64,000 nt of DNA from a virus (lineage: Duplodnaviria > Caudoviricetes): IMG/VR virus record IMGVR_UViG_3300030330_006022, positions 32,001 to 96,000 of that record. One strand, written 5' to 3'. This document shows, in pieces, positions 3,039 to 64,000 of this stretch. Made by a program: the position numbers and the translations under genes. Position 1 is the stretch's first letter, and every line of letters begins with the position of its first letter. Under the pieces are notes generated by a model that saw only the letters and a list, made by a program, of their open reading frames with translations, did no database searches and had not been told where the DNA came from.

Positions 3039-3042
3039 TACA

Positions 3043-3155: not shown

Positions 3156-3204
3156 GTATTAACAGTTACTAATTAATTTGATAATCCTCCCAGATTATAT
3201 TCAT

Positions 3205-3233
3205 ATTATAACATAGGATAACTAAAATGTCAA
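3205..3233 (-). promoter_or_regulatory. Sigma70-type promoter on minus strand, TTGACA-N17-TATAAT with extended -10 TG
   Basis: Reverse complement reads ttgacattttagttatcctatgttataat. Confidence 0.7.
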
Positions 3234-22668: not shown

Positions 22669-22678
22669 GGAGAAATAG

Positions 22679-25659: not shown

Positions 25660-26255
25660 TGTCTTTTCAAGTAATTGCTGATTTTGAGAAAGAAATAGCT
25701 AATTTCTTCGGAGCTCCATATGCAGTAGCAGTGGATTGCTGCACACACGGAATTGAGCTTTGCTTAAGAATGAAGCAAGTTAAAAAAATAAAAGTCCCAA
25801 AGAGAACTTACTTATCTGTTCCAATGTTAGCTAACAAACTTAATATTGATCTGGAGTGGACCAATCAGGTGTGGCAAGATTATTATCATCTAACTGATGA
25901 CATAATTGATGCTGCTGTTTTATGGAGAAAGAACAGTTATATTGCTGGTACATATATGAGTGTGAGTTTCCAATTTAGAAAACACTTAAGTCTTGGTAGA
26001 GGTGGTATAATATTGTTTGATAAAGAAGAAGATTTCGACACATTGAAAAGAATGTCTTATGATGGAAGACACCCAGACCAACGATGGCACTTGCAGAATA
26101 TAAAAACTATGGGATATCATTACTACATGACTCCTGAAACAGCTGAACTTGGTTTACAAAAGCTTCCTGAAGCAATTGAAAGAAAACCAAAACAATGGGT
26201 TTATACAGATTGGCCCGATCTAACTACAATGGATTTTTTTAAGGAGAACAAATGA
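25659..26255 (+). CDS. DegT/DnrJ-like PLP sugar aminotransferase, short form
   Basis: FE..A..FG..AVAVDCCT, IIDAA, SFQFRKHL..GRGG. Confidence 0.8.
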   Translation: MSFQVIADFEKEIANFFGAPYAVAVDCCTHGIELCLRMKQVKKIKVPKRTYLSVPMLANKLNIDLEWTNQVWQDYYHLTDDIIDAAVLWRKNSYIAGTYMSVSFQFRKHLSLGRGGIILFDKEEDFDTLKRMSYDGRHPDQRWHLQNIKTMGYHYYMTPETAELGLQKLPEAIERKPKQWVYTDWPDLTTMDFFKENK

Positions 26256-28104: not shown

Positions 28105-28399
28105 AGATATAACATTTGAAGAATACTACGAGCACTACTTGACATTACACCAAAACAAATGGTGTAGAAGACTTCATGTTTTAGGACAGATAATGACTAT
28201 TGCTTTTGTTGTTATTTGTATTAAATATAGTTTGTGGTTATTGTTGCTAGCAACACCGTTTGTAGTTTATCCTTTTGCTTGGACTGGTCATTACATCTTT
28301 GAAAAAAATGAACCTGCTGCGTTTAAAAACCCTTTGTGGGCTAAAGCTTGTGATTGGGTTATGCTAAAGGATATAATAATAGGTAAAATACCGTTTTAA
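28097..28399 (+). CDS. DUF962/Mpo1-like membrane protein
   Basis: YLTLHQ..CRRLH, FAWTGHYIFEKNEPA..P. Confidence 0.8.
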   Translation: MSKDITFEEYYEHYLTLHQNKWCRRLHVLGQIMTIAFVVICIKYSLWLLLLATPFVVYPFAWTGHYIFEKNEPAAFKNPLWAKACDWVMLKDIIIGKIPF

Positions 28400-28409
28400 G
28401 GAGAAAAAA

Positions 28410-29261
28410 ATGAAAAAAGTATTAGTAACAGGTGGTTGTGGATTTGTAGGAAGTAATTTGGTAGATATACTGATTAATAGCGGTAATCATGTTACTGTTA
28501 TCGATGACCTGTCTTTTGGTAAAAAAGAATATTGTAATATAAAAGCAAAATATATATTTGATGATTTTAAAAAGGTGTTAAATAATCACGAAGAAAAATA
28601 TGATGTAATATATCATTTAGCAGCTGAGGCTAGAATACAACCATCTTTTAAAAATCCTCTGTATACTTGTGAAAACAATTCTTATGGAACTGCAATAGTT
28701 TGTGAATATGCAAGAAAAAACAATTCCATGATTGTGTATGCTGGTTCTAGTTCATTTTATGGTGGTGTGTATTTAAATCCATATGCATTCGCAAAATGGC
28801 AAGGTGAAGAAGTCATACAAATGTATACTAAAGTATATAATGTGAAAAGCGGAATAGCCAGGTTCTTTAATGTTTATGGGCCTAGAAACCCTTTGATAGG
28901 TCAATACACACCCGTGGTAGCTATTTTTGAACAGCAAATGCTAGACTTTAAACCACTAACAATTGTTGGAGACGGAGAGCAAAGAAGAGACTTTACTCAC
29001 GTATATGATATATGTCAAGGGTTAATTGACATTTCTTTGGAAGATAGACAAGGAGAGGTATACAACCTAGGAACAGGTAAAAACTTTTCCATAAATGAGT
29101 TAGCTGACTTATTTGGTGGAGAGAAAAAGTACTTACCTGCTAGACCTGGAGAAGTTAGAGTAACACTTGCTGACACATCTAAAATAAATAAAGCAACTGG
29201 CTGGAAAGCCAAATACGATTTAGAAAAATACATAAAGGAGTTTAAAAATGAAATTATCTGA
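28410..29261 (+). CDS. NAD-dependent epimerase (UDP-glucose 4-epimerase-like)
   Basis: VTGGCGFVG, HLAA, YAFAK, RFFNVYG, GDGEQRRDFTHV. Confidence 0.9.
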   Translation: MKKVLVTGGCGFVGSNLVDILINSGNHVTVIDDLSFGKKEYCNIKAKYIFDDFKKVLNNHEEKYDVIYHLAAEARIQPSFKNPLYTCENNSYGTAIVCEYARKNNSMIVYAGSSSFYGGVYLNPYAFAKWQGEEVIQMYTKVYNVKSGIARFFNVYGPRNPLIGQYTPVVAIFEQQMLDFKPLTIVGDGEQRRDFTHVYDICQGLIDISLEDRQGEVYNLGTGKNFSINELADLFGGEKKYLPARPGEVRVTLADTSKINKATGWKAKYDLEKYIKEFKNEII

Positions 29262-42392: not shown

Positions 42393-44198
42393 ATGCCAAA
42401 ACAAAAGAATGTACCTATAAAATATACTAGTAGAGATTTTACTACTATAAAACAAGACTTAATTGAACACGCCAAAAGATATTACCCAGATGATTATAAT
42501 GATTTTTCTGAGGCTTCTTTTGGATCTTTAGTGTTTGACACTGTTGCCTATGTCGGTGACGTATTATCATACTATGTTGACTATTCAGTTAATGAAAGTT
42601 TTTTAGATTCTGCTCTAGAATTTTCTAATATTAGAAAGCATGCTAAAAATTTAGGTTATAGATTTACTGGTGTTCCCGTAGCTGAGGGAATTATGGCTTT
42701 TTTTATTAGAGTTCCGTCTATTGTTGAGGGTAATGCTCCTGATACTGATTATCTTCCAATTTTAAAAAAAGGATCAGAGTTTGCTTCAGGTAATGGCTCA
42801 ACATTTACGCTTCTTGAAGATGTAAACTTTGGTGCCCCTGAGAATGATTTTATAGGAGCTACGTTTACACAAGATGGTGGAACACAAGAGTTTGCTGTAA
42901 GGGCATATGGGATGGTAAGTTCAGGAAAAGTTTTATCCACAGATATTGATTTGACTAGTGCAACATTTGAAAAATTCAGAAAAGTTAGAGTTGATGATGG
43001 ATCTGTTACCGAAATAATGAAAGTTGAAGACTCAGAAGGAAACATATTTTATGAAGTTGACTACCTAAGTCAAGAAACTGTTTTTATTGAAACTACAAAT
43101 CAAAGTGCCATGTCCGATGGAGTACGTTCAATAATCAAACCATTTGTAACTGCTAGAAGATTCACAGTTTTTCAAGAGAATAACAGTACTTTTTTACAAT
43201 TTGGTTTTGGAAGTGACAATGATGATGACTCTGGCCTTGCTGATCCTTCAAAAGTAGCAATAAAAATGCATGCTAAAGACCACATAACCCACACTGCTAT
43301 TGATCCTACAAAATTATTAGGCACTGATAAGCTTGGAATATCACCTCAAGGTACGATCTTAACAATAACTTATAAGAAAAACGATAGAGCTAATCCTTCA
43401 TCTGCTGCTAATACTATTAAAACAGTTGTAAAAGCAGATTTTAAATTTATGAACGAACAAAATTTAATACCAGCAACAGTCGTAACAGTTAGAAATAGTT
43501 TAGAGTGTTCAAATGAAAAACCAATGGTTGCACCACAACTATCTGTCACTAGCGATGAGTTAAAAATTAGATCGAGAAACTTTTTTGCAACTCAAAATAG
43601 AGCTGTGACTAAACAAGATTATGAAGCAATAGCCTACAATATGCCAAATAAGTTTGGTAGTTTAAAGAGAGTAAACATTGTCAACAATCCTTTCGCTACA
43701 AATAAAGAGTTAATTATGTACGTTGTATCTGAAAACAATGAAGGTCTTTTAACACAAACTGAAAGTATTACGAAACAAAATCTAAAGTCTTGGCTAGAAC
43801 AATACAGTTCTATTAATGATATAGTAAAAATTAATGATGCTAAAATAATAAACTTCGCTATAGATTTCGAGGTAAAAACAGATAACAGGTATGATACTAC
43901 CGGTGTTTTAGCTGATGCTGTTGATAGAATTAAATTTAAATACAGCGAAAAATTTTATATTGGAGAGCCAATATATATAAATGATATTTTCAACATTCTT
44001 TCAAAAACAGAAGGTGTGATTGATGTGGTGAAAGTAAAAATATTAAACAAATCTTCAAACGACGGTCCAGGTTATAGTTCTATACCATTTATTATGGATG
44101 ATGTTATAAGTAATGATGCTACATATTACAAAGCTCCAAAAAATGTTCTTTTTGAATTAAGATACCCAGACCAAGATATTACAGGAAAAGCTTCATAA
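42393..44198 (+). CDS. Baseplate wedge subunit, T4 gp6/J-like
   Basis: YTSRDF..IK..L, NESFLDSA, LQFG, QNRAVTKQDY. Confidence 0.85.
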   Translation: MPKQKNVPIKYTSRDFTTIKQDLIEHAKRYYPDDYNDFSEASFGSLVFDTVAYVGDVLSYYVDYSVNESFLDSALEFSNIRKHAKNLGYRFTGVPVAEGIMAFFIRVPSIVEGNAPDTDYLPILKKGSEFASGNGSTFTLLEDVNFGAPENDFIGATFTQDGGTQEFAVRAYGMVSSGKVLSTDIDLTSATFEKFRKVRVDDGSVTEIMKVEDSEGNIFYEVDYLSQETVFIETTNQSAMSDGVRSIIKPFVTARRFTVFQENNSTFLQFGFGSDNDDDSGLADPSKVAIKMHAKDHITHTAIDPTKLLGTDKLGISPQGTILTITYKKNDRANPSSAANTIKTVVKADFKFMNEQNLIPATVVTVRNSLECSNEKPMVAPQLSVTSDELKIRSRNFFATQNRAVTKQDYEAIAYNMPNKFGSLKRVNIVNNPFATNKELIMYVVSENNEGLLTQTESITKQNLKSWLEQYSSINDIVKINDAKIINFAIDFEVKTDNRYDTTGVLADAVDRIKFKYSEKFYIGEPIYINDIFNILSKTEGVIDVVKVKILNKSSNDGPGYSSIPFIMDDVISNDATYYKAPKNVLFELRYPDQDITGKAS

Positions 44199-45646
44199 TG
44201 ACTATAAAAAGATATTTTGCTACGGCAGATAATACAATTTCTAACGCTTTTGATCAATCTCTATTAACTACGAATAGAGCAACTGGTTCAAATATGGGAG
44301 AAGCAGACATACTTGAAGTGTTTCAAATATACGCCCAGTCTTCCTCCTCTTCTGGTCTTTCTAGTGAACTCTCTAGAGTATTAGTTCAATTTGACACCTC
44401 TGCAATTAGTACTGACAGAAGTAGTGGTGCTATTCCTGCTTCTGGTTCTGTATCTTTTTTTCTTAAACTTTACAATGCTCGTCACGCTTCAACGCTACCA
44501 GAAAACTATTCTATGACTATTTCTGCTGTTTCACAATCATGGCAAGAAGGTAATGGCTTAGACATGGTAAACTATACTGATAAAACATATGATTTAACTG
44601 GGTCTAATTGGGTTCGTAGAGGCTCAATGGGTGAATGGAATGTTACTGGTGGTACATATCATGCTTCCCCAACATACACAGCTACATTTAATGAAGGTTA
44701 CGAAGACTTAGAAGTTGACGTTACCACATTAGTTGAGCAGTGGGTTAATAGTGAAGGTAATGTTTTAGGTTCAAAAGACAACTATGGATTTGGAATCAGA
44801 TTGTCAGATTCTTTTGAATCAGCCCTTAAGTCGTTTTATACGAAGAAATTTTTTGCTCGCGGGTCAGAGTTTTACTACAAAAGACCTGTTCTTGAAGCTA
44901 GATGGGATGGCTCTGTGAAAGATGATAGAAGCTATTTTTTTGCTTCTTCTTCACTAGCACCCGCTGCTGATAACTTAAATACGTTATATCTATATAATAG
45001 TATTAGAGGTGTTTTAAGAAACATTCCTGCCGTTGGGACTAGTGATATTGAAGTTTCGCTTTACGACTCAGCTGGAGGATCACAAATAGGATCTACTTTC
45101 ACTGGTTCTCATGTTTCTACTGGTATATATAAATGTCAAGTCTTTGCTGACACTGCTGAAACTTCAATTGTAGATGTGTGGCATTCTGGTGGTGTTGAGT
45201 ATCACACAGGATCAATTACAGTTAATCCTTTTTCTACAAACATATACAACCCATCAGATCGTTATATACTTAATATTTCAAATTTAAAAGAATATTATGG
45301 ACCTAATGAGACTGCAAGGTTTAAACTTTATGTAAGACCGAGAAATTGGTCACCAAATATATATACTGTCGCCAAATCAGCACCTCAAACTACGACAATA
45401 TCAAGTGCTTCGTATGAAATATGTAGAGCATATGATAATTATCCCGTTATTCCATTTGGAACTGGCTCTACCAATCACACAATGTTATCTTATAACGTAT
45501 CAGGTAACTATTTTGATTTAGATATGTCAATATTTGAAACCGATCAAATGTATACAATTAAGTTTGCTTTTTATGATGATGGTGTAGGGTCTTGGAATGA
45601 ACAGTCATATAAATTTAATTTTAAAGTGAGAAGCGATGTCTATTAA
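44198..45646 (+). CDS. Baseplate/tail structural protein, beta-rich
   Basis: SRVLVQFD..WQEGNG..RPVLEARW pattern of beta-sandwich virion domains; TAATG coupling to gp6-like. Confidence 0.6.
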   Translation: MTIKRYFATADNTISNAFDQSLLTTNRATGSNMGEADILEVFQIYAQSSSSSGLSSELSRVLVQFDTSAISTDRSSGAIPASGSVSFFLKLYNARHASTLPENYSMTISAVSQSWQEGNGLDMVNYTDKTYDLTGSNWVRRGSMGEWNVTGGTYHASPTYTATFNEGYEDLEVDVTTLVEQWVNSEGNVLGSKDNYGFGIRLSDSFESALKSFYTKKFFARGSEFYYKRPVLEARWDGSVKDDRSYFFASSSLAPAADNLNTLYLYNSIRGVLRNIPAVGTSDIEVSLYDSAGGSQIGSTFTGSHVSTGIYKCQVFADTAETSIVDVWHSGGVEYHTGSITVNPFSTNIYNPSDRYILNISNLKEYYGPNETARFKLYVRPRNWSPNIYTVAKSAPQTTTISSASYEICRAYDNYPVIPFGTGSTNHTMLSYNVSGNYFDLDMSIFETDQMYTIKFAFYDDGVGSWNEQSYKFNFKVRSDVY

Positions 45647-48600
45647 AGATTTATTCAATAAAAAAATTGTTACACAAAACACGATAACAGAATTAACAAA
45701 TAGTGTAGAATCAATAGAGCTTGTTAAAGAAGTGGAAAAAAGAAACAGGACTTTTTTTCCAAATCTAGATTTTGCCGACCCTGCTTCGTTTGTTCATTTC
45801 GGCTCAGCAAAAGAATACTACACTTCTGCAATAAAAAGAATATATTCATCTTTTCCTTATGATGGATCTGAAACAGAAAAATTAAAGTTTAAAAATAATT
45901 CCACTTATCTTGATCAATGGATGTTAGAAAATAAATACCCTAGATCCACTGGGTATGCTTTGTTTTCTGCTAACGGATGGGGAACTGGTACAACTATTAA
46001 TGATGAAGACGGAGTAGCACAATATGGCCTTCCTGATTCCATAGAATACATTTATTCAGCTGGAGGAACTCATTCTGCTTCTATAGAACAACACACAGAA
46101 TCTGCTAATGTAATTACTGAAGGTTTAGCAAAAGCTTTTGAAAAAGCAGTTATATATGATACCAATAAAAACAGAACAACCAGTTTTAGAATGAAAATGG
46201 ATGATGGTATTAGTATACAGTTTTGGTTAAAAAAGGAAGCCTTTGATATATCTAAAACTAAAAAGGAAGTAATTTTAGATTTATGGAATGGTAACGCTTC
46301 TGATTCTGCTGACTATGGTAGACTTACTTTGGAAATATCTGGAGCTGCTGCTAATGAATCCTCAATTTATTTAACTTTGTATTCTGGTTCATCTGGTATA
46401 ACAAGACAAGCCATATGCACCACAGATTATGATTCTGGTTCTTTGGCAAATGGTGCTTGGACTCATCACTCTGTTACAGCTAGAGCAGCAAGTCAAAAAC
46501 TTTTTGTAAAATATTATAAAGATGGACTAATCAATAGTTCTTCTGTTTTTGCAACTAGTTTGACTTTGGGAGAAATACCTGGTAGAATTAATGGATACAT
46601 TGGTAGTCTACAGACATCTGCTCATGGTGACGCGTATCGTGACTCTGGGAACATGGTAGGTGCTGGTAAACTTTCAGCCTCCATGGATGATTTTAGGTTT
46701 TGGAAAAAAGCACTAACAAGTGAATATATCTATAACACTTGGTATTGGCCCATTGGTGGAGGTGTAAACACAGACGACTATAGAACTGATTTGGGGATCT
46801 ATTATAAATTCAATGAAGGAATAATGAACAACCCTTCATATGACTCAATAGTATTAGATTACTCTGGTAGAATAGCCAATGGTATATGGTATGGCTATGA
46901 TAGCTATTCAAGATCTACAGGATCTGCGTTTACAGAGACAGAACCTGGTGATCCAATTATAAGATCAGGTCATCCTTTGATTTCTAGTTTAATAACAGAA
47001 ATGGAAGCAAGTGGTTCTTTATATGATGAAACAAACACTTCTAACATATACGATTCCATTCCCGCTTGGTTAAGAGAAGAAGATGAAGAAAATAATAATA
47101 TAAAATACTTGTACCAAATACTCTCTTCATATTTAGACACACTATATACTCAAATTTCTGAAATACCAAAGTTAAAAGATAAAGACTATTTTTCAGGATC
47201 TTCTGAGCCGTATTTCTTTATGGAAAGATTATTGAAAGATCAAGGTCTAATAACTCCCAATGCATTTGTAGAAGGAGATGTCCTAGAATATTTTTGGGAT
47301 AGAAATAACACAGGTGACAGATTTGAAAAAAATATAGAAAACACAAAAAGAAAAATCTATAATAACATTTACAACAATTTAGAATACATATACAAAACAA
47401 AAGGAACAGAAAAATCATTTAGAAATCTTTTGCGCTGTTATGGTATTGATGACGAGTTGGTAAAACTAAATGTTTACACTGATAATGGTAAGCATTATAT
47501 AAAAGATAGATATAAAGACACCTCAGTAAAGACAAAGGTGTTAAATTTAAATAAAAAAAGCAGAACAGCAGGTAGAATTATACAAACTTCTTCGAGTGCT
47601 AATACGCTTACTTTTATATCTGGCTCTGGTGAGGAAATAAAACAAGAAAAATTTTCTGCTTTTTCGTTAGAAGGCGGAGTTATATTTCCACAGAAAAAAG
47701 ATTTTGGAGAAACAGGATACTATGAAGTAACCAGTCTATCCTCTTCTTTGTTTGGCTTTCACCAAGCTAATCCAGACGACCCTTCAGATTATACTTGGCA
47801 CAGTAATGATGTAGCAAATTTACAAGTATATGCTGTAAAGCCAAGTATTTTTTCTACTTCAGCTAAATTTGTTGTTACTAATTATGATGCTAGTATTCGT
47901 TTTGAAACTGATTTTTATGAAGATGTCTACGATGCACAGAGATGGAACTTTCAATTATCTATTAAACCAAATGGATACCCAAATGCTGGAGCATATTCAC
48001 AAGATGAAGAGCCGCAATACACTGCTAGGTTATATGGTATAACCCATCAATTTGGGGACGTTAAACATCAATTTGAGATCACTTCTCCTGTTAATTTTAC
48101 AATAGGTTCAGCTATTTTGTCAAATGCTAAAAGGGTTTACCTTGGTTGCCACGCAACAAACTTTACTGGGTCTTCACACATAGAAACAGATGTAGTGTTT
48201 GATTCTCTGAGAGTTTGGATGGATGAGTTAAATAATGAGTCTATAAAAATTCATAACTTGGATGCTTCTAACTATGGTCATGACAAAGTCTACAACAATA
48301 CTACAATATTTAATTATGGAATATCAAGTTCCATTGAGATTCCTGGCTATGATTCTCTAATTTTACACTGGAATTTTGATCAAAACTCTTCAGCAGATTC
48401 TTCAGGAGAGTTTGTAGTTAAGGATTTTTCAAGTGGCTCCGTGGACACGTTTGCGACAGCAAAAATAGTTATACAAGACGCAGGGGGAATATCACATGGT
48501 GACACATTTGGACTTGTTGATAGCGCAGGAACAGTAATTGAATATTTAGTAAATGGTGGCTTAGCTTTTGAATCTGGTGGTGGCAGTGGCGCTGTTGTTC

Positions 48601-51600
48601 CTGTAGGTTTTCTAGGTGTTGGTGGTGGTATTGCTGGTAAAGTAAAAGCAGCTAAAGCAATAGAACATGCAATTAACAATACAACAACTACAAACTATAC
48701 TGCTGTTTCAAATGGTGTAGATACAGTAACAATAACTCAAGGTACAAAAGGGCCCATAGGAAACAGGACGAATCTAGATTCAATTGGCTTTACAACTGTG
48801 TCTAATTTTACTGGTGGTTTTAGTACAGACAAGTATGGGTGGGCATCTAAAATTTTAGAGAGTCAAAATGAAGGTCGCGCTTTAGGTTTTCCTGCTAATG
48901 ACACAAATCCAGTAAAAACTGAAATGATATACTCTAGGAAAAAAGAGCTACCAGAAATTTCTTTTACCAACGACAGAATTACTATTATGGGTAATGAAGA
49001 AGAATATTTCTTAGAGGATGAGGATACAACTGATAACGTATTTGCTTTAGAAAAAAGCATGTATCAATCGATATCAGAAGAGATGTTAAGAACATTTTCT
49101 ACTGTTAAAGAATATTCTAATTTATTTACTAAACCTCTAGACTTTTATAAATTAGAATATAAGAAGTTAAGATTAGCTAGAGGTTTGTTTTTTGATAGAG
49201 TAGAAGAAAACCCTAATTTAGACAAATACACAGACTACTTTAAATGGATAGACTCTTCCTTATCATTTTTTATAGAACAATTAAAACCAGCATCTGTGAC
49301 GTTTTTAAATAGTGTTGCCAATGTTGTAGAAAGTCATATATTTGAGAGACCAAAATACGACAGAAAGTTTCCGCTTTTGGACACTAAAACAGCAACCCAA
49401 GGTGTAGTAAAGTCTGTTGGGGAGTTGACCTACAATTGGAAGTTTGGTCACTCACCTGAATACAAAACAGGAGCAACTCCAAACACTCATTGTCTTTGGA
49501 AAAGAGAACGGGAAGAAAGAACAGGTGATTTAGCTTCTGTTAGAAATACTATTAGAGATGTGTTAACAACTGAAAATAAAACTTATATTGCTTTTCTGGG
49601 GGATAATGATAAAAATGCTTATCTAAAACCAAACTATGTAACTAGAAGGTTTTCAAAACCCTACAAACTAGACGTTGATTTAGGTGTAAACTTACATGGT
49701 GGTACAAACTATAACCAACAAAAAAATAGAAATTTCATTTACAATGTTACTAGACCACATGGAGCTAAAACAAATTTAGGAATACCAGTTAACGTAGCTG
49801 TTGTTGGTGTTGGACCAGGACATGACATAGTTAATTCTAACTTGTGTGATGATATTGAAGATCCATCAGAAGTTAAAGATTATAACTTTGTTATAACAGT
49901 TGGAAAAGACTCCTCTGGTGACGGACAGGCACCAGCTACTGCATCTTTAGAATATGCTTATAAAGTTAAAGGACACTATGCAGCTCCGTTCAATTTGATA
50001 TCAGGATCTGAGACAGCTGGTGCCAATAAATTGGTTAATGACAGCTATTCAGCTTCAGTTATATTAACAAACCTACATTCTGATACGACATATTTTGAAA
50101 ACGATATCCCAATGCAAGGTCCTTTTACACAAACTTGGGTTGGAGGACATCAGTCTAGACATGTTGACATAAACCAATACGACCCAGCATTAAGAACTTC
50201 AGGTGGAGCTGACCCTACATTAAACAATCTAGATGATCAATATTCAAGACCAGAAGCATTTAGATTACTATTTGGTGACCACCCTGATGAAGCTGTAAAT
50301 GATGGAGCTATAGGTATCGTAGGACCAGATTATGGCGGTCCTTACCCAGATACAACCAGACAATGGGCAATTTATTATCGCGACTTTAGAGGTAAAAGAC
50401 CATATAACATTCAAAATGTTAGTGGCTCTAGAACTATGTTGGGTAATTATAACAAAAGATATGAATATTTTAACTCTGTTGGAAGATTAGAAAACAATAA
50501 CAGATTGAAGAAAGCAGCTTCTGACACTGAATATAATTTAAGTGGTACATTTTTACCACCAGAAATACAAACAGCTTTGCCTCAGACTACTCATCCATTG
50601 ACTATGTTTGGTATATCACCTTCATCAAATGGAAATGTTTTTGGTAATGTGATATCAGAATCTGCTTCTCCAGATGGAGAAAATAATAGAATAAACGCAA
50701 TCAATCAAATAATAAGACCAATTGTTTTAGCATCTGGTTCAATGCTTGTTACCGGTTCTACACTTTACAAAGCACCATATTCTGCTTCACTAAATATACA
50801 ACCAATACCTTATCAAGGATTACATCAAGCTTATCACTTTCAAGTCTCTGGAGCAACTGACTATTACGAAATATATTCAGGTTCTTTTGACGTACAAACA
50901 GTGCCTCATGCTGGTATCCATCAAACTTACTATTTTAAAGTAACGGGATCAACCCACAATGAAATAATTGATAACATTTATACAGGTTCTTTTGATATTG
51001 ATGCGGCCCCAAGAGCCCCAATTCATGATTTTTTGTATTTTAGAATCTCAGGATCTACTGATGCAACTGATAGTAGTTTATTAAAAATTACAGCAAGTTC
51101 AACTCAAAAACATTTTGAAATAGATAATAACGGCTTCACAGGTACCACTGATGCCATAAGAGTTCCAACAAAGACAGTTTCTTCAACAAATGTAGCAAGT
51201 ATTAGAAGCGCTACAGATGCTGACAATAAGCTTTTTGTGGACACTACATATAGCGGAATAGGTACTAGTGATGTTTCTGTATCTTTCTGGTTTAATCCTT
51301 ATGACATTAATGGATCTCTTGGAACTGACGACGATGCACAAGAAACTTATATAAGATTTGCTGATAATTTTCAAGATGCTTTAATTATACACTGGAATAA
51401 ATACAGGTTTACAGTTGAGGTTGAAAACACATCAGGCACAGATAGATTCAAAAAATTTACTACGAATTATAACAACAGCACCGGTTGGAAACACGCAACA
51501 GTTACAGTAGGTATGAATAATTTAAGTACAGTAAGCCCAAAATTATACATTAACGGAGTAGAACACACAGGCGTGTTTGGTTCATTCAACGCACCAGGAG

Positions 51601-54600
51601 GAAGTTCAAGAACTATTGACATGTTGATTGTAGGATTTAAAAATGGAAACTCTTCTAATGGACCCGCAATGCATGATCTTGTTATTTGGGATAAAGTGCT
51701 GAATGCAGACGAAGCTTGGGAAGCATATAAAAATGGTTTAAAAAATCAAGATTTCTCAACCCACAGTGCAAATTCTAATATAGTTAATCATTATTTATTT
51801 GGTGAAGAAGCAACTCTATCTCATCTTTCTTCTGGTGACACCGTTGATTCTCCTAGAAATTTGTCTTCAAATTATGGTAGTGAACCTGGGAATGTTCTTA
51901 TAGACAGCACCAGTAATAGCATGAAAATACTAGATCACTCAATGAATCAATATAACGCTAACTTAACAAACACTCAATTTTGGGATAGTTTAAAAACTTC
52001 ACTAAACACAGAGTTTTCAGGATATACAGCAAATTATATTTCAGGAGGAATGGCACAATTCTTTTTAAGAAAAGATGCCCCAGGGCAGAACAGTATAAAT
52101 GTTGTCACAATCGGTAATGCTTTTTCATCTCCTGCTGGTCGACCTGGAAATGCTGCTATAGCTAGTGATTTAGAAGATGGAGATACTATCTCTATTTCTG
52201 GTAGTACTTTTACTGTGAGACACACAACATCAGGTTCAGCACCAACAGACTTTGTTGTTGGTGAATTGTATAGAAATGCTATACTGTTTCCAGAGTCAAC
52301 AGAAAATCGCATTCATTTAAAACATGAAGACTACACCAACCCTTCATCAGACAATATATCTTTTTCATTTTGGATTAGATCAAATAATGCAACTGGTGGA
52401 GGAAACAAATTTATATTTTTGTCAGAAGATGCCTCTTCAGACAATGCTATTTGGATATATATTTATGAAGACGAATTACGAGTCTACACTTTAAATGGTA
52501 GTGGTACTAAAAACCATAAGTACAATGGAGCTATAGTAGAAGGAATATGGGATCACTTTACCATTTTTATTAACACAACAGATATGACGGATGTTAATGT
52601 ATATAAAAATGGAACATTATTGTCTACTACTGGTGAATCAGGATCAGGTACAGGAGCAACAAGAGATGTAAGGAAGATCTACATAGGAGATGCTGATGGT
52701 AACTCAAGTAATAGTGAACTTCAAGGCTCTCTGCAAGACTTTGTAATCTGGAACACTGGTTTAAATTTGTATGATGCCAAAACTCTTTACAATTCTGGGT
52801 CTTGGTTTGATCCTAGTTCACATATTTCTGCTTCTTATATACATGATTGGTGGCCTCTTGGTAACGGACCAGGAATGCCTTCATCAGGATCTAACATAAA
52901 CTCTGTTACTACTTTTGAACCCGAGGTTGGCTCTCACCCACTTGTAAAAGGAACAGACTGTGACGATGAAGTTTTTATAACAGATGGGATAATTGAAAGA
53001 GCAAAAGACGATCCAGTTTTTTATACTCACGTTGCTCACCATATTGATGCTAACACAAACTATTCTGCTTCAAGTGTTGACAATGGGTCTACTGGTAGAA
53101 TTAATATGCACCAAACCTCCTCTGTTGTTATTACAGACACACTAGCAAATTCAAACGATACATTTTCCAATGAAGCAGCTTTTGGTGTTGATGTTCGTAT
53201 AAATTATATATCTGGTGCCGTTCATGGACAGCAAGTTCAAATTGAAGATGAAGTTTTCTTTATCTCAACAGCTAGTTCTCCAACAACTTGGGCATCTAGT
53301 TCTGGTGGAATCCAAGTAAACTCCACAGGATCAGAATTTTGGAATCATTTATCTGGTGCTATCCAACAATACCTTCCCGAATATACTGCTTCTTATTACA
53401 TATATGACAATCAAGCACGTTTCTTTGTTAGAAATGGAGAATCTGGATCACAAGCAAATGATACTTTATCTATTGGTGGCGGAAGCTGGTCAGACCATGG
53501 TACAGTTATTGGTTCTGATATGTCCGCTAGTTCTAATCTCACGGACGGAGACACTTTAAGTCTTGATGGAGACACTTTTACTTTACGATATACAAATTCT
53601 GGCTCAGCCGCAGGAGACTTTGTCGTTGGATCAAGTTATAGAAAAGCTTTAAATTGGAAAGCAGCCACAGGCGCTTCAGCAAAAAAGATGAGTCTAAAAA
53701 ATGTAAGTTTTGATGGAGCTAGTTTAGAAGATGTAATATCATTTTCTTTTTGGGTTAAGTTTGATCAGGATGACACTCCTGGTGACGTACAATACATACT
53801 TAATGGGTATGACTCTGCGGGCAATTTAGCAATTGGTATTTACAGATCTGGTAAAGATATACTTATAGAACTTTATAATACTAGCAGTGCAGTGCGAAAC
53901 TATTTTACGACTAGTGATGCCTTACTATCTGGTAAATGGTACTCAGTAAGCATAAAAGTTGACACCTCTGATATTGACACTACATGTGTTGTTTATATAA
54001 ATGGCCAATTGCAGTCAATCACTGGGGCAGGTTCAGCACCTGGTGCAGCTCGAACCTTGGGAAGAATTTATATTGGAGATTCTGCTGGTGATTTTCACTC
54101 AAACGAACTACAAGGCTCTTTACAAGACTTTGTAATTTGGAATACAGGATTGGGATCACAAGATGCTGAAATTCTTTACAATTCAGGTTCTTGGTTAGAC
54201 ATACACTCTCACCCTTCTGCATCTTATATATGGGATTGGTGGAGACTAGGAAATGAAGATCCTAGTAAGCCTTCGGGTTCTGCTTGGACTTCGGTGCCTA
54301 TAGTGCCGACAATTGGAAGACACGATTTGCAGTTTGACGACGATGCTGCTTCAAAGATTTTTGTAACAGACGGAATCATTGAGAACAAAAAAACCAACTC
54401 TGAATTAAAAACTCATATAGCTAGTACAATAGCAGCACAAACAGTGTTCTCAGCTTCCGTTAGTTCTATACTTTTAGAGGTAACTGCGGCGACAGATATA
54501 CATTCAACAGGTTCTTTCTCAAAGGATGGAACAACGTTTGGATCATTATCAGGAATTGAGTTTGTAAAATACGGAAATTATTACTCTGGTTCGGTTCCTA

Positions 54601-57533: not shown

Positions 57534-57534
57534 A

Positions 57535-60500
57535 ATGAGCAATATACCTTTAGACTTTGTTGGTTTAAATACATTAGTAAAAGAAGAGATAGACCCAGAT
57601 ACAAATACAATAGGAAACACAAATGCAAAAGCATTAAAGTTTAATAAGACTGATGAGATATACAATTTAGAGCTAACCCAATCAGCTGGGTATTCTTATT
57701 TGGTAAATTACGGTGCGCAGGGATATACTCAAACAGGCCCTTTGTCTTATTCTTTTTGGATAAAAATGAACTGGGATGCGCTTTCTAGTTTGACAATACC
57801 ATTTGCTTTGATCTCTTCTGGACACTGGACAAATGGTCAATTTTTTACTATCGTACTTTACGAATCTGATGGGTCAAGCCTCACGTACAGAATTAACACA
57901 AATAATACCGGCGGTACCGATACAGTTTTTGATGGGTCAAGAATATTAAATATTGATTTTACTGATTCTAGTTCTAATACAAGAGCTCTTATTAGTCAAG
58001 TTGTTCTTAACGCTTTTGAAGCTTTAAATTTAACTAATTGGCAATTTTCTCGGGAAGGTTTTGGAGAAAACCCCGTCTTTATAAAAGCTACGTCACCATT
58101 ACAAAAAATTACTTTTAATGATGATGATATTGGTGGAGCTATATCTCCCATAAGAACACCTTTGCTTTACAGAATTATCGGCTTTGATACTACAGGAGAT
58201 AGTTTTTTTGGTATAATTAAAGATGATTACTTACTTCACACACCAGGGTTGGCAGATGGTGGAAATAATACTGAATTTATATTTAGGCACTCAGCCAGTG
58301 ATGGAACAATAAAAACAGCCACTTGGGAGTTAAATACTTACCTTAGCGGTCTTGATTGGGCAGGTTGGGACGACTGGGCTCATATAGTCGTTTCTTGGGA
58401 TGGAAACTTTAATAATTCTGTAATACTTTATGTAAATGGAATAAACATAGGAGCAGGATCTCAAAACAGCGTAGACAAAATAGAAAAGAAAGCCATAAGT
58501 CAGATTGCGATAGGTTTTCCAAAATCTATACCAACAGTAACCACATATCACCCTAGTTCTTTAAATGCAGAAATTAAACATGTTGCCACTTACAACAAAA
58601 CGCTAAATCAAAACGATATTGATTTAATATATTCTAACGGGTTTGTAGAAAATATTGCAAAAATATCAACACTAAAACCTTTCATAATAGATTATTGGAA
58701 ATTTGGAGATGACTTATCATTAAACTTTGATGATACAATTCAAAATAATACTGATATTGAACCATCTTATGGAATAAACACATTAAGAACTGTCAACACT
58801 TTTACCATATCAAAAGGCCTAATACCAGAAATAAGAAATAAAGAAGTTCTTTTAACTAAAGTTGTTCGAACAAGAGTGGCAAATGAGTATTTTACTATGA
58901 ACCCAGATTTAGTTGATGATGATGGTAATGTTATATATGTCGACTCAACTAATCAAGTTTTAAGAACAAATGGTCAAATTGAATATGAAGATTATTTAAT
59001 TGCTTTAAATATACACAGAAATGGACCTTATGGGTATTCATCTTTTAAACAAATTAGGGCTCATGAAAACCCTGTTACAAGATATCATAAAAAAAATAAT
59101 ATTTTTTCTTTTTCTCCAGAAGAAGGTTTTAGAAGAACAGTTATCAAAGATGGAAAAGTAATATCTCAACACACAGATAAACGAGGACCAGTAACAAATT
59201 TTGAAAATGAAAGCCCAGTAATAATGAACAAAAAACCCTTTGAAGCAATTGTGGATGTTTTTATAGAACAGGGTGGAGACCAATTTGAAGAAAAAGTAAA
59301 ACTTAAAACATCTTATGCAAGTCAACTGGATTACTTTAACAATGAAATAATAAATCAGCAGCTTGGGTTGGATGAACAAAGAGATCACTTTTATGAAGAA
59401 ATGAAAAGTTTGTATATGGGAGTTGATCCTGAATCTTCAATAGTTACGGGTGTGGATAGCGTAAAGTTATCTCAAACTATTTTTCCAACAGATCTTTATA
59501 CAAATAAATCTTTTACCAAACAAAGACCCAGCTTTAATTCTAATTTTTGGAGAAAAAATAGAAATGATAGGATTCTTTTAGATCAAGATAATGGCTTTGG
59601 GTATTCTGTTCCTTCTCAATCAATGTGGCCTTTAGATGCGGTAGCAAATTTTGAAACTCAAACCCTCATCGGCTCAGATGGAAATTTTAGAATCTTTAGC
59701 CCCTCTTTAGCAAAAGCTATAAATGACGGCGGCACAGTGACAAATGCTTCTAGATTTACATTTCCCGAGTCTCACCCTTCAACCCCAGGCAGTATATTTT
59801 TTGAAGTTGTTAACAAAGGGTCTTTGGCTGCTCGTTTTTACGGAAGACAGAGCAGTCATTATATAGGAACCAATGAAGTAGATGGACTTAACGTAAAATT
59901 AAAAATTGAACCTGCGATTGCTCATCTGTACGATGGATTTAGTAGAGTTGCTACAAATATGAGAACTGCTTTTGTTGGGTCTCCAAATAATTATGACTCT
60001 ACAACAGACTTTACTCTTAACACATACACAAGAAAAGGAGCTTATATAGCTAGAAGTGCTGGTTTACACAACTCATCTAGCCCACAAGTGGCAAGAGTAA
60101 ACTATATGAGAGTAAAAAACATATATTTAGATAATATTAACACAAATGATAGTAATGCTAGATATAGAGCTAAATGGTTAGCTGATTTTAGAAACTGTAC
60201 TTTATCCTACTGGAACGCAGCAGGTGCTGATTCTAGTAATAATACTGGATTTGGTACACTTATGATAGATTTTAGTTCTAGTAAATCACCAGTAGCCCAT
60301 ACTGGCGATGGAGTTGTAACAGGTACTGGAACAAACCGACAAAGTGGTAATGGTCCCGGTGCTCTATCAATATCAGGATCTGGAGATATTGATAAACTAA
60401 GAAGGCACATATTTTTTGCTACAAGTTCTGTTAATGTAAGTTCTACTTCTGGTGGAGGAACTACTACACACTATACCACTACAACAGGTGACAATATGCT

Positions 60501-63500
60501 GGTTGTCAGACTAGGAACAAAATGGACGAAAGATCCAAGTGGTGAAAATCCGGAAGATTATTACGGTAACGTTAGTCACGATCCAGCCCTTGGAATTCAA
60601 TCTGGAGTGGACAACAATGGAGCTGTTGATTTTATTTTTGATGGTATTTTTAGTATAAATAACCCACTTAAACAAACTCATCACAGCACAACTGAACTGG
60701 ATATTACATGTAGAAATTCTAGATATTTAACTTATATACAGTCTCACTTTCTAGTTTCTTTAAAACAAAATCTAGAATCAGATGCTGGTGAAGCAGCTTT
60801 TAGTGCTAGTTGCTATTTAGCAATAAATGGTAAATTTATTGCCCCAACAAGAATCGTAGACCCATATGGATTTTTATCTCGTACTAATTATACCGATGCT
60901 GGTGGTGTAGAGTATGCACCACAAACTTGGACCGCAAAAGATGTTGAACCAACAGATGTTATTTGGTTTCAAGGTGGAGATGGAGTAACTAAAACTTCTG
61001 GTGGTACTCCTATAGCTGAGGTTGAAAATGCTCCAACAAACTTTCAATATTTTTCCGATATAGCATTATTCAAAGGATCTTTAGATCATTCAGAAAACAG
61101 CATGTCAGAAACATTAACAATTAGAAATGGTTCAGGAGCCAGTCAAGATATAACTCTTACTAGAGACAGAAACTCAGCACACGGTTTTTCGTTTAACAAT
61201 ACAATTACAATTGTTGTAAACTTAGCTGCTGCGAACGCTGGTAGCAAGTGTTTAGTAGACTTTTCTGTAAACTCATCAGGAAATATGACAATCGCTATTA
61301 CACCAAATACGGGTCTATCTCCTACATGTTCTAGAACTGCTCTTGTTGCTGCTATTAATGATGGCGAACATTCTGATTTGACCGTAACTGGTCACGATCT
61401 CGTAGACTTTACCGCGGCTGCTGGTGGTGCTTCTGATGGCACTGCTATAGAATCAATGCCAGCTACTAATTTTCCTGGAGCCACAAGGTTCAGTGGTTTT
61501 AATAATTCTTCTATCGGTTTTGTTGGTAAAATACCTTTCATAGCTGGTACAAATGGTGCTGGAGGAGATGAGCAGCAAATTGGAGTACGATATGTTGATT
61601 ACAACACTGCCATGACAAACTTTAACGATCAGGCTACTGGTACTCCTTTAGAAGGTCCATACCTTTGGTACAATTTTGAAAACAATCACAGAGGTGAGGC
61701 TTCCGTTAATCAATATGATGTTTTTGGTTTTGAAGATGTATCCGTTAATACAGCAGTTGCAGCTTCAAGTTATGATTACCTTGCTACAATGGGATATCTA
61801 CACGGTGATTTATCAGGTAAGGGATTTCTAGAAAATCAAAATATACCTGGGCTTGTTGGACCAATAACAACTACGCATCGTTTAAATAATGGATCTTTTG
61901 CTGATTTTATAGCCGCTCCTGGGGATAATCTAGCAACATACACAATAGAACAAGGTCTCATGAGTGATTACTCACCAGCTAGTAATTTTAACTCACCAGT
62001 AGAACCATCTATTCCTCTTGGTGGATTTACAGGAGATAATTCTCGACAAGGACCAGGTGTATTACAAAACTCTTACAGTCAATTTGCTAGAGGTTTGACC
62101 ACTTCTACCCCTCTCGACCTCCAATTATCAGCATCGGCTTTTTACTCTAGAAGACATACATTAACAGCTTCTACTTCTGTTGTTAATCCATTTTTTACAA
62201 ACTTGTCTGGTGGCACAATTCATGGAATAACTGCGTCTCAATTATACTTGGGAACAGCTTTGTGGGAGGCTCCTCAACAAGCAGGATTTTTCAATAACGA
62301 AGGGACATTTGTATCTGCTTCAAAAGATCCTTTCTATGATACATATGGAGAGTATGCTGAAGAAATAACTAAAATAGGAAAAGGCTACTCTGTTGTGCCT
62401 GAGTTTAGAATATCAACTCAAATAGAACACTATTTATCTCAGGGACCTTTGGCAAGTAAGAATGATTTTTTAGAATTAACAGGAGGTTTATCAACACTAC
62501 AGAAAAGTTCACAAAATAATTTTTATAAAATATACACAAATTCAGAATTTATTAAACATTTTAAAGTTGTTAGAGATGATCATAAGAAAATGTTTGATCC
62601 CTACAAAATAACGCTAAGTTGTAAAGCGATTAAAAAGTTTCTTCCTTACAAAGGTTTTTATCCTGCCGAAAGAACAGTTGAAATGGCAAAACAATTTTAT
62701 TCTTCTTATGGTTCTAATGTAATTACAACAGCTAGCATAGGCCTGACAGGAAATAGCTATTTTGCAAATCAAACTTATCCAGTTCAATATTTACTAAATC
62801 CTTTGTTTGGGCCCGGAGTGCTTTACAATACAATCAAGTCAGGTATAGCTTGCGATTATCCAGTAATTACTTCTTCAATGAACACTACCGGAAGTGTTGT
62901 TGGAGATTATCATATAAACGACTTTTTTGACACAAGAATACCATTTGAAGCTTTAGTTGAACCAGAAAAGTATTTAGCAAACAATACTTTATTTTCTAAT
63001 GAGCCCGATCCAAACGGTAATACATTTACAGAAGTTGCATGGAATGGTCAGGGAAACAATCTGTACAAACTACAGATGAATAATTTTCTAGCTGAAGTCG
63101 GAGAATTCTTTTTAGAAAATCAAAATTATACTACAATAACTTCACTACCTCAAGGAGATCCCAACTTTGGTAACGCTGAAGCTGGTAAAGTATATTCAAT
63201 GCGTTTAAAAATGTTTAGAACTATAACTGGTCAAAAATCTTCTGGAAATGGTCCAAAAGGAATTAAGTATGGATTACCTCAAGATACAGGCTCAATGAGT
63301 GAAGCTTTTACTATGTACTCTAGACCATCAGCATTTGGTCCTCCAACAAAAATGTCTGCTTCTTCGTTTACAACAAAAGCATGGAATAAGTTTAAAAAAC
63401 AAAACAGCGTTAATTTTCTTTATAACACAGCATCGACATATGTTGCTGTTACGTCTTCTAATCCAAATGATGGCTATAATTGGCCTTTCACACCTCCATA

Positions 63501-64000
63501 TTATCATGGAGAAGCATGGGCAGACATAACATTTGTTCCACCAAGTGCAGAATCAAAAAAATATACTCTACCTGAAATTATCAACAATTCATCTGTTGAA
63601 TTTTGTAGATATTTTGAAAAAGATCACACACCGGGATCAGCCAAAGCAACAGTAACTATTCAAACTTTGGTACTAACACGAGATATCAAAGGTGTAGACA
63701 CTAGTACAGTTACGGTTGTTTTTGCCGATGATGCTGAAAATCCGGATAATAAATGTTTAGTTGATTTTGCTGTTGTTGATGGTAATACTACAATTACAAT
63801 TACAAGAGATGGTGATGGTACAACTTGCTCTAGAAATGCTTTAAAAGCTGCTATTAACGATGGTTCACATGCCGATTTAATTGTAACAGGCCACAGCCAG
63901 GTTGAGTTTAGTGTTACAAATACACCAACAGATGGAACTAACGCTATGACCGCAGAAACAGTTACTTTTTCTGGTGGAGCAGGTAATTTTTTCAGTTTAG
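57535..64000 (+). CDS. Second giant tail/baseplate protein, >2150 aa, runs off the window (absent from ORF track)
   Basis: GGAG SD, ATG 57535, no in-frame stop to 64000 on manual reading; starts MSNIPLDFVGLN, has an N-terminal LamG (SFWIK..HIVVSWDG..LYVNG). Confidence 0.85.
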   Translation, partial: MSNIPLDFVGLNTLVKEEIDPDTNTIGNTNAKALKFNKTDEIYNLELTQSAGYSYLVNYGAQGYTQTGPLSYSFWIKMNWDALSSLTIPFALISSGHWTNGQFFTIVLYESDGSSLTYRINTNNTGGTDTVFDGSRILNIDFTDSSSNTRALISQVVLNAFEALNLTNWQFSREGFGENPVFIKATSPLQKITFNDDDIGGAISPIRTPLLYRIIGFDTTGDSFFGIIKDDYLLHTPGLADGGNNTEFIFRHSASDGTIKTATWELNTYLSGLDWAGWDDWAHIVVSWDGNFNNSVILYVNGINIGAGSQNSVDKIEKKAISQIAIGFPKSIPTVTTYHPSSLNAEIKHVATYNKTLNQNDIDLIYSNGFVENIAKISTLKPFIIDYWKFGDDLSLNFDDTIQNNTDIEPSYGINTLRTVNTFTISKGLIPEIRNKEVLLTKVVRTRVANEYFTMNPDLVDDDGNVIYVDSTNQVLRTNGQIEYEDYLIALNIHRNGPYGYSSFKQIRAHENPVTRYHKKNNIFSFSPEEGFRRTVIKDGKVISQHTDKRGPVTNFENESPVIMNKKPFEAIVDVFIEQGGDQFEEKVKLKTSYASQLDYFNNEIINQQLGLDEQRDHFYEEMKSLYMGVDPESSIVTGVDSVKLSQTIFPTDLYTNKSFTKQRPSFNSNFWRKNRNDRILLDQDNGFGYSVPSQSMWPLDAVANFETQTLIGSDGNFRIFSPSLAKAINDGGTVTNASRFTFPESHPSTPGSIFFEVVNKGSLAARFYGRQSSHYIGTNEVDGLNVKLKIEPAIAHLYDGFSRVATNMRTAFVGSPNNYDSTTDFTLNTYTRKGAYIARSAGLHNSSSPQVARVNYMRVKNIYLDNINTNDSNARYRAKWLADFRNCTLSYWNAAGADSSNNTGFGTLMIDFSSSKSPVAHTGDGVVTGTGTNRQSGNGPGALSISGSGDIDKLRRHIFFATSSVNVSSTSGGGTTTHYTTTTGDNMLVVRLGTKWTKDPSGENPEDYYGNVSHDPALGIQSGVDNNGAVDFIFDGIFSINNPLKQTHHSTTELDITCRNSRYLTYIQSHFLVSLKQNLESDAGEAAFSASCYLAINGKFIAPTRIVDPYGFLSRTNYTDAGGVEYAPQTWTAKDVEPTDVIWFQGGDGVTKTSGGTPIAEVENAPTNFQYFSDIALFKGSLDHSENSMSETLTIRNGSGASQDITLTRDRNSAHGFSFNNTITIVVNLAAANAGSKCLVDFSVNSSGNMTIAITPNTGLSPTCSRTALVAAINDGEHSDLTVTGHDLVDFTAAAGGASDGTAIESMPATNFPGATRFSGFNNSSIGFVGKIPFIAGTNGAGGDEQQIGVRYVDYNTAMTNFNDQATGTPLEGPYLWYNFENNHRGEASVNQYDVFGFEDVSVNTAVAASSYDYLATMGYLHGDLSGKGFLENQNIPGLVGPITTTHRLNNGSFADFIAAPGDNLATYTIEQGLMSDYSPASNFNSPVEPSIPLGGFTGDNSRQGPGVLQNSYSQFARGLTTSTPLDLQLSASAFYSRRHTLTASTSVVNPFFTNLSGGTIHGITASQLYLGTALWEAPQQAGFFNNEGTFVSASKDPFYDTYGEYAEEITKIGKGYSVVPEFRISTQIEHYLSQGPLASKNDFLELTGGLSTLQKSSQNNFYKIYTNSEFIKHFKVVRDDHKKMFDPYKITLSCKAIKKFLPYKGFYPAERTVEMAKQFYSSYGSNVITTASIGLTGNSYFANQTYPVQYLLNPLFGPGVLYNTIKSGIACDYPVITSSMNTTGSVVGDYHINDFFDTRIPFEALVEPEKYLANNTLFSNEPDPNGNTFTEVAWNGQGNNLYKLQMNNFLAEVGEFFLENQNYTTITSLPQGDPNFGNAEAGKVYSMRLKMFRTITGQKSSGNGPKGIKYGLPQDTGSMSEAFTMYSRPSAFGPPTKMSASSFTTKAWNKFKKQNSVNFLYNTASTYVAVTSSNPNDGYNWPFTPPYYHGEAWADITFVPPSAESKKYTLPEIINNSSVEFCRYFEKDHTPGSAKATVTIQTLVLTRDIKGVDTSTVTVVFADDAENPDNKCLVDFAVVDGNTTITITRDGDGTTCSRNALKAAINDGSHADLIVTGHSQVEFSVTNTPTDGTNAMTAETVTFSGGAGNFFSL

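Follow-up and report, generated by a model that had tools for sequence, protein, structure and literature searches.

Results

A Tripeptide Is in Excess in the Outer Tail Proteins of a Marine T4-like Myophage

We analyzed a 64-kb stretch of DNA, hereafter the window, which corresponds to bases 32001-96000 of a 114-kb contig from an uncultured marine T4-like myophage (IMG/VR record IMGVR_UViG_3300030330_006022; ~33% G+C; completeness 63% according to CheckV). The window carries a pair of adjacent glycosyltransferase (GT) genes, GT4a and GT4b, followed by a cassette of sugar-related genes and, further downstream, by a gp6-like baseplate gene and the genes for the tail proteins p482, p3965 and the last open reading frame (ORF) of the window (Table 1). 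We focus here on the tripeptide [ST][GA]S, which recurs in these tail proteins, and on its possible relation to the GT4 pair.

Table 1. Features of the window, with positions counted from its first base
Feature	Position	Strand	Description
GT4a	16913..18157	+	retaining GT4-family glycosyltransferase, invariant EX7E; candidate priming transferase
GT4b	18157..19401	+	diverged GT4 paralogue; EX7E kept
Variable sugar cassette	19394..29261	+	p279, GT2, GT10, GT11, FabH-like, SDR, hexapeptide acyltransferase, PhyH-type dioxygenase, DegT aminotransferase, three epimerase/dehydratases
p2909 C-terminal patch	40282..40857	+	residues 2370-2559; contains all five p2909 sites
gp6-like baseplate wedge protein	42393..44198	+	internal negative control and phylogenetic marker
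p482	44198..45646	+	first protein past gp6; CBM-like jelly roll, then Ig-like beta-sandwich domains
p3965	45636..57533	+	giant baseplate/fibre protein
Last ORF	57523..64000	+	leaves the window

To score the motif, [ST][GA]S sites were counted in each protein and compared with 1000 composition shuffles of that protein, a control that a first-pass annotation of the window had proposed. The results show an excess in p3965 (60 sites vs 13.4 expected, z 12.6), in p482 (7 vs 1.9, z 3.9) and in the last ORF, both in its windowed part, 57523-63999 (12 vs 5.3, z 3.0), and over its full 2547 aa (14 vs 5.7), giving 81 sites vs ~21 expected for the three tail proteins together. The manual tally in that annotation, about 50, 7 and at least 10 sites, respectively, was exact for p482 and conservative for the other two. 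Its statement that the gp6-like and 1304-aa proteins lack the motif, and that the 2909-aa protein has only a few copies, is borne out as well (0 sites vs 0.9 expected, 0 vs 1.0, and 5 vs 2.7). In p2909, all sites fall in the last 560 aa (5 vs 1.0 expected, P 0.004), with none in the first 2349 residues (1.8 expected), and their clustering in ~190 residues near the C-terminal end suggests that only the C-terminal part of this protein is exposed on the particle. The remaining ORFs of at least 150 aa in the contig, when pooled, are at chance (22 vs 21.4).

The excess in p3965 is insensitive to local composition, with z staying at 11.9-12.7 when residues are shuffled within blocks of 20, 40 or 100, and a first-order expectation that preserves dipeptides still leaves a twofold excess at the tripeptide level (60 observed vs 30.3, P 1e-6). 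Part of the signal lies in a threefold ConA/LamG-like repeat (residues ~2100-3500), which accounts for 28 of its sites; the other 32, vs 7.3 expected, lie in the remaining 2564 residues. The three tandem units, each of ~460 aa (window 51933-56135), are 30-48% identical to one another and terminate in a near-invariant block, LQDFVIWNT...LYNSGSW.D..SH.SAS.IWDWW, whose two motif copies are the best-conserved residues of the unit. A search for further homologues of this unit found only 4 loci, and an AlphaFold model of one unit built on a 5-row alignment (pLDDT 38) was too poor to show the context of p3965 sites.

Definition and Flanking Context of the Motif

The motif is sharply defined. In p3965, only Ser (41 observed/7.4 expected) and Thr (19/5.9) exceed expectation at the first position, Gly (37/7.6) and Ala (23/5.7) are in excess at the second, where Ser is weakly tolerated, and Ser alone (60/13.3) is in excess at the third, where Thr is at chance (11/10.7). 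Alternative tripeptides, namely SGT, SAT, TAT, GSS and SSG, occur at rates equal or close to expectation. Because the sites are encoded by many different codons, a DNA-level origin of the motif could be ruled out, placing the signal in the protein.

We then compared the flanks of 358 sites, pooled from the enriched ORFs of four phages that carry the GT4 pair (see below), with those of 579 chance sites in control phages. Hydrophobic residues are favored immediately before (1.44-fold) and after (1.49-fold) the motif, as are aromatic residues after it (1.84-fold), while charged residues are avoided on both sides (0.26-fold before, 0.31-fold after), as is Pro after it (0.15-fold); the 579 chance sites display none of this hydrophobic, charge or Pro bias. 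Such an alternation, hydrophobic-hydroxyl-small-hydroxyl-hydrophobic, is the look that would be expected of an exposed beta-strand with two outward hydroxyls. The first-pass annotation had placed the sites at strand ends, which the model of p482 (pLDDT 84) bears out only in part: one site is at a strand start, four lie in coil and two in mid-strand.

Motif Sites Are Retained and Gained under Selection

The family of p482 has more than 4,400 homologues in marine metagenomes, including many Tara samples, of which 120 were used for conservation statistics. Across these, [ST][GA]S has an observed/expected ratio of 4.5. Among the seven sites of p482 (residues 29, 82, 134, 302, 337, 403 and 422), those at 29, 403 and 422 are retained in 95%, 83% and 99% of homologues, and the remaining four in 36-65%. 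Ser residues of the motif persist in 79% of sequences vs 46% for other Ser residues (P 0.006), and the second position stays Gly or Ala in 97% vs 63% elsewhere. When these common sites are masked, sporadic sites at ~49 other columns still occur at 2.0 times chance. Old sites are thus maintained and new ones repeatedly fixed, a pattern that suits a tag better than the relic of a single fold.

The same holds at closer range. In five close IMG/VR relatives, whose p482 is 63-82% identical to that of the window, the giant proteins differ much in length and architecture, and p482 together with the giant homologues shows a four- to sixfold excess (20/3.4, 39/9.3, 28/5.9 and 24/5.4 observed/expected). 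No excess was found in the gp6 or p2909 homologues of these five phages.

The Motif Excess Is Co-distributed with the GT4 Pair

The nearest cultured relatives of the window phage, as judged by full-length gp6 (30-31% identity), are Microcystis phage Mel-JY01 and the Flavobacterium "immuto" phages. The gp6 of LR756508, an uncultured 484-kb phage, is as close to the window phage as theirs, and in the gp6 tree LR756508 groups with the window phage, Mel-JY01 and immuto with 100/100 support, the inner branching order being unresolved. By megablast, the tail region has no match in the phage collection. Neither Pfam nor PHROGs assigns p482, p3965, p2909 or the last ORF to a family, a marginal ConA-like match being the sole exception, and Foldseek on p482 returns only generic beta-sandwich and carbohydrate-binding module folds.

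We scanned ten genomes for the motif, taking all ORFs of at least 150 aa (Table 2). Five carry both the GT4a-GT4b pair and the excess, five carry neither, and no complete genome is discordant. One apparent counter-example, an IMG/VR genome (G006) that shows the excess with no pair seen, was rejected: it is 70% complete and, by synteny with G007, its pair would lie past the contig end.

Table 2. Genome-wide [ST][GA]S excess in phages with and without the GT4 pair
Genome	GT4 pair	Observed/expected	ORFs with Poisson P<0.01
Own contig	present	2.43	3/63
Mel-JY01	present	2.15	13/156
immuto	present	2.13	9/116
RM378 (Rhodothermus phage)	present	2.17	6/96
G007 (complete 181.6-kb IMG/VR genome, other sub-lineage)	present	2.22	6/126
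T4	no GT4b	0.79	0/128
P-SSM2	no GT4b	1.25	1/169
HTVC008M	no GT4b	1.47	1/120
Syn9	no GT4b	1.21	1/110
LR756508	no GT4b	1.41	0/327

Among the controls, the giant Ser-rich structural proteins of cyanophages P-SSM2 and Syn9 hold about as many sites as expected (11 vs 13.4 and 15 vs 14.4), as do T4 gp7, gp10, gp12, gp34 and gp37. LR756508, which lies inside the clade, is the most telling case: it retains alignable p482 and baseplate homologues that lack the motif, its p482 homologues having 0 sites. The sole strongly enriched ORF in a control phage is that of a 597-aa protein of P-SSM2 (18953-20746, loci L048-L049; 20 sites vs 5.3), which is collagen-like with low-complexity repeats of the HSFSGSGSH type and is not comparable to the dispersed motif.

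In 77 IMG/VR loci whose gp6 is 38-45% identical to that of LR756508, the region downstream of gp6 shows a 4.2-fold motif excess. On the upstream side, the ORFs of the 80 loci related to LR756508 gp6 (L196-L275; likewise 4.2-fold downstream) have 67 sites vs 140.9 expected, a ratio of 0.48; this depletion could reflect avoidance of the tag by non-target proteins, an avoidance that the window contig does not show.

We also asked which genes follow the distribution of the motif. In Mel-JY01, only 8 of the 156 ORFs share its pattern, with counterparts in immuto and G007 but none in LR756508 or the four outgroups, and half of these 8 encode glycosyltransferases: GT4b, two GT2s and one GT4-domain protein. 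No kinase and no acyltransferase is found among the 8. Another of them encodes a "putative chitinase" (343 aa, L010:17924-18955), located just upstream of the baseplate genes, which itself has 4 sites vs 0.5 expected.

Enriched Proteins That Can Be Named Lie on the Outside of the Virion

The enriched ORFs that can be named all encode proteins of the outside of the virion. In tail sheath proteins, we found 7 sites vs 2.0 expected and 8 vs 2.6, all confined to the variable N-terminal and middle part, the conserved C-terminal core being free of them. Enrichment is also seen in the gp13-like neck protein (4 vs 0.6 and 3 vs 0.3) and, mildly, in the major capsid protein, while terminase and portal have no motif sites. 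When sheath, gp13 and major capsid protein are pooled, phages with the pair have 32 sites vs 10.7 expected (3.0-fold) and controls 15 vs 10.8 (1.4-fold). Since the same homologous folds are enriched in the pair-bearing phages and far less so in the controls, the excess is not a property of the fold. As the first-pass annotation had noted for the tail proteins, the sites occur across unrelated domain types, with an excess in jelly roll, Ig-like, LamG-like, sheath, neck and capsid domains.

The "tail spike protein" of immuto (1053 aa, L011:35287-38448) has 53 sites vs 12.1 expected. Many of them form periodic arrays (TASY/SASF/SGSF), resembling bacterial serine-rich-repeat regions; others fall within fibre repeats of the SHAEG type, and part of its excess is therefore structural. 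Another immuto protein, of 373 aa, carries 13 sites.

The GT4 Pair Is Conserved and Its Sugar Island Variable

GT4a and GT4b are adjacent and 414 aa long each. Both match Pfam Glycos_transf_1 above the curated cut-off of 26.4 bits (GT4a, 50.3 bits; GT4b, 30.8 bits), and both keep the EX7E motif of the C-terminal Rossmann domain. In GT4a, E287 and E295 are invariant in 37 sequences; in GT4b, E280 is invariant and E288 is kept at 90% or more. The best match of GT4a among solved structures is B736L of PBCV-1 (3oy2, E 1e-6), barely better than other GT4 enzymes.

GT4b lies directly 3' of GT4a in 80 of 80 related IMG/VR loci, in which the cassette genes come and go (GT2 in 21, GT10 in 8, GT11 in 8, FabH in 1, PhyH in 0). 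In two close relatives, PhoH, p223, a PD-(D/E)XK nuclease, GT4a and GT4b are 76-96% identical to those of the window and the rest of the island is replaced; the nuclease and PhoH adjoin the GT4 pair. In the isolate collection, GT4a orthologues occur only in immuto, Mel-JY01, LR756508 and RM378, and GT4b orthologues in immuto and Mel-JY01, with a diverged copy adjoining GT4a in RM378. LR756508 has no GT4b orthologue, and no GT2 at all. In RM378, the order of a nuclease-like gene, then GT4a, then GT4b is kept (locus L014:8048-11729; genome 8212-11893), but ribonucleotide reductase comes directly next, with no sugar cassette beside the pair. Its GT4 pair may then work with a common host nucleotide sugar.

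The first-pass annotation had regarded the tripeptide as an acceptor for the transferases of the island, and had suggested comparing motif density with GT clusters across phages. Our data narrow this proposal: in the ten genomes, the excess travels with the GT4a-GT4b pair, as would be expected of an acceptor motif. It does not travel with the island as a whole, of which the other GTs and sugar-synthesis genes vary and which in RM378 has no cassette adjoining the pair.

Two further genes lie next to GT4b. p279 (window 19394-20233) follows it directly and is kept in 51 of the 80 related loci; it has no Pfam or NCBIfam match, but its language-model features are similar to those of short viral Glycos_transf_1 proteins (score 0.96, 207 shared features). 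On these grounds, p279 could be a third GT-B transferase, truncated and GT1-like, or a partner of the GT4 pair. A small GT2 of ~226 aa (L026:6292-6969; Mel-JY01 86292-86972) is the next gene 3' of GT4b in Mel-JY01, immuto and G007 and lies close by in RM378, following the presence/absence pattern of the motif. The lineage of the window phage has no orthologue of this small GT2; p279 and the GT2 of the window were considered as its counterpart and discarded, the sequences being unrelated.

Discussion

A Candidate O-Glycosylation Tag on Exposed Virion Proteins

Taken together, these results show a motif that is in excess, sharply defined, under selection, restricted to proteins of the virion surface and co-distributed with the GT4 pair. 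A tripeptide that is selected on many unrelated exposed folds, dispensable for those folds in relatives, absent from internal proteins and gained time and again at new positions is best explained by a reader acting in trans. Glycosyltransferases are the genes that track the motif. We propose that PHI-[S/T]-[G/A]-S-PHI (PHI, hydrophobic) would be a selected tag on the outward proteins of the virion in a large clade of aquatic T4-like myophages, marking the outer baseplate, fibres, neck, outer sheath domains and, mildly, the capsid. The GT4a-GT4b pair would read the tag in the cytoplasm of the infected cell and O-glycosylate one or both of its hydroxyls, and enzymes of the hypervariable downstream cassette would supply unusual nucleotide sugars and lengthen the glycan, such that each phage strain would acquire its own coat. 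Three elements of this model are inferences: the action of the pair on protein, the role of the motif as its acceptor and the elongation of the product by the cassette. That [ST][GA]S serves as an O-glycosylation tag on exposed virion proteins has, in our judgment, about an even chance of being right; the glycan-coated baseplate or fibre envisaged by the first-pass annotation remains the leading hypothesis on the comparative evidence.

Several observations weigh against this proposal. GT4a and GT4b yield generic GT4 matches only, and nothing marks either as a protein transferase. If a soluble enzyme read the tripeptide, non-virion proteins should be modified too and might be expected to avoid the motif, which those of the contig do not (22 vs 21.4). 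Some sites lie inside clearly structural repeats, e.g., the LYNSGSW...SASYIWDWW that ends the LamG-like units and the SHAEG-type repeats of the immuto fibre, and PHI-x-small-x-PHI is also the pattern of a plain surface beta-strand. Lastly, all positive genomes belong to one deep clade, and the 5-vs-5 split therefore contains few independent contrasts, in effect one in-clade loss, that in LR756508.

One rival explanation is a lineage-specific structural idiom, in which PHI-[ST]-[GA]-S-PHI would simply be the way in which this clade builds exposed strands and turns, its two hydroxyls pointing outward and its small residue packing between the two hydrophobic ones, with nothing attached to it and with the GTs serving elsewhere. 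The strand-like alternation of the flanks, the location of several sites in the best-conserved blocks of repeated domains, the near invariance of three p482 sites and the periodic arrays of the immuto fibre speak for it. On the other hand, the excess spans folds as unrelated as jelly roll, Ig-like, LamG-like, sheath, neck and capsid; homologous proteins of LR756508, T4 and cyanophages fold without the motif; new sites arise at non-homologous positions at twice the chance rate; and Thr, the better strand former, is excluded at the third position. We consider this explanation unlikely, albeit a serious contender.

Alternatively, the motif could be a tag for some other reader, by phosphorylation, acylation or an assembly/chaperone contact, and the GT4 pair and cassette could modify the host envelope, e.g., to block superinfection, or the phage DNA. 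Sugar and lipopolysaccharide (LPS)-type islands of marine myophages are commonly credited with changes of the host surface, phage GTs have been described that attach diverse glycans to DNA (bioRxiv 10.1101/2023.12.21.572611), and the nuclease and PhoH next to the pair would suit such a role. However, phages that carry the pair infect hosts of different phyla (Cyanobacteria, Flavobacterium and Rhodothermus), a spread that speaks against a host-specific acceptor and in favor of one borne by the phage. Phage DNA is a less probable target given that the ThyA/dCMP-hydroxymethylase family, which comprises the classical hydroxymethyl-pyrimidine enzymes, is absent from the complete genomes of Mel-JY01 and RM378, although other routes to modified bases remain; a search for the Tet/JBP family gave no match in any control genome and hence carries no weight. 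In addition, glycosyltransferases are the prevailing class among the few genes that track the motif, with no kinase or acyltransferase among them. We therefore view a different reader or target as rather improbable.

Finally, that Ser/Gly/Thr-rich, internally repeated proteins would yield SGS-type tripeptides by chance can be practically dismissed: the proteins are indeed Ser-rich (9-13%) and almost half of the p3965 sites lie in its repeat, but local shuffles, the dipeptide expectation and removal of the repeat leave a 2- to 4.4-fold excess, the permuted tripeptides SGT, SAT, GSS and SSG stay near chance, and the equally Ser-rich giant proteins of P-SSM2 and Syn9 have no excess.

Returning to the proposed glycosylation tag, a more specific version can be imagined, a two-enzyme, two-hydroxyl code in which GT4a and GT4b, both with intact catalytic motifs, would each glycosylate one hydroxyl of the Ser/Thr-x-Ser dyad, the two hydroxyls lying on one face of an exposed strand in a virion protein that has already folded, and in which the cassette would build strain-specific glycans on that primer. 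A group of ocean myophages that ranks among the most abundant would then carry serotype-like coats on tail, neck and sheath, which, if true, would shape adsorption, aggregation or grazing. This version is speculative and, in our opinion, improbable in its full detail.

To our knowledge, chemical proof that phage particles are glycosylated exists for very few systems, and we know of no acceptor sequence in tailed phages whose hosts are Gram-negative or aquatic. If the proposed tag is real, three residues would predict from sequence which virion surfaces are sugar-coated in an abundant clade with marine, freshwater and thermophilic members, and priming would fall to the conserved GT4 pair. The hypervariable "LPS-like" islands of aquatic myophages would then stand for diversity of the virion coat and not for host manipulation. 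Since the clade has cultured members, Flavobacterium phage immuto, Microcystis phage Mel-JY01 and Rhodothermus phage RM378, the proposal is directly testable.

Comparison with Known Glycosylation Systems

Our literature search found no paper describing the [ST][GA]S motif, and we compared the proposed system with those in which surface proteins are glycosylated by dedicated enzymes. Mycobacteriophage virions are glycosylated by phage-encoded GTs (Freeman et al. 2023, Cell Host Microbe, as cited in PMC12619734 and PMC12801897). According to these citing accounts, the phage GTs act in the cytoplasm, where they modify structural proteins of the same phage with glycans and thereby coat the particle, as we propose for the window phage. 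In the mycobacteriophages, siphophages of actinobacteria, the same accounts place the glycans at the C-termini of capsid and tail-tube subunits. By contrast, the window phage and its relatives are T4-like myophages with a candidate internal tripeptide spread over baseplate, fibre, neck and sheath and with another, clade-specific GT4 pair.

In the jumbo myophage XacN1, encoded GTs, glycoprotein bands and at least two virion glycoproteins have been reported (PMC5852040), suggesting virion glycosylation. XacN1 differs in that no sites or motif were defined, and it shares with the window phage only the N-terminal ~100 residues of gp6. The chlorovirus PBCV-1 likewise performs a virus-encoded, cytoplasmic glycosylation of structural (capsid) proteins at non-canonical acceptor sites, but it is a eukaryotic giant virus and its glycans are N-linked.

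In the Aah/TibC system, heptosyltransferases modify the autotransporters AIDA-I and TibA, and the soluble enzyme recognizes a short strand-loop-strand element instead of an extended sequence (PMC3835316). A soluble cytoplasmic O-transferase acting on many Ser/Thr residues of a beta-rich surface protein is also what we propose here. However, no heptosyltransferase family is found among the Pfam matches of 20 island proteins, and Aah/TibC have no sequence consensus, whereas the tripeptide of the window phage is sharply defined.

The GtfA-GtfB pair, which primes the serine-rich-repeat adhesins of Gram-positive bacteria in the cytoplasm and in which GtfB is a non-catalytic chaperone (PMC6973325), provides what we regard as the closest working analogy for the GT4 pair. 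The differences are clear: a Pfam scan (E <= 0.01) finds in GT4a and GT4b no DUF1975, the domain through which GtfA and GtfB bind each other and the acceptor; both GT4 proteins keep EX7E, whereas one Gtf partner is non-catalytic; no GtfA structure is among the 45 PDB sequence matches; and the putative acceptors of the window phage are folded beta-rich domains rather than long disordered repeats. The likeness lies in the acceptor, with alternating serines around a small residue, and in an adjacent GT-B pair conserved in all loci. It extends to the genetic layout: GtfA/GtfB loci contain a variable number of further GTs that extend strain-specific glycans, and some species have the pair alone (PMC6973325), just as a conserved pair is followed by variable genes, here candidate extenders, in the 80 loci related to the window and stands without them in RM378.

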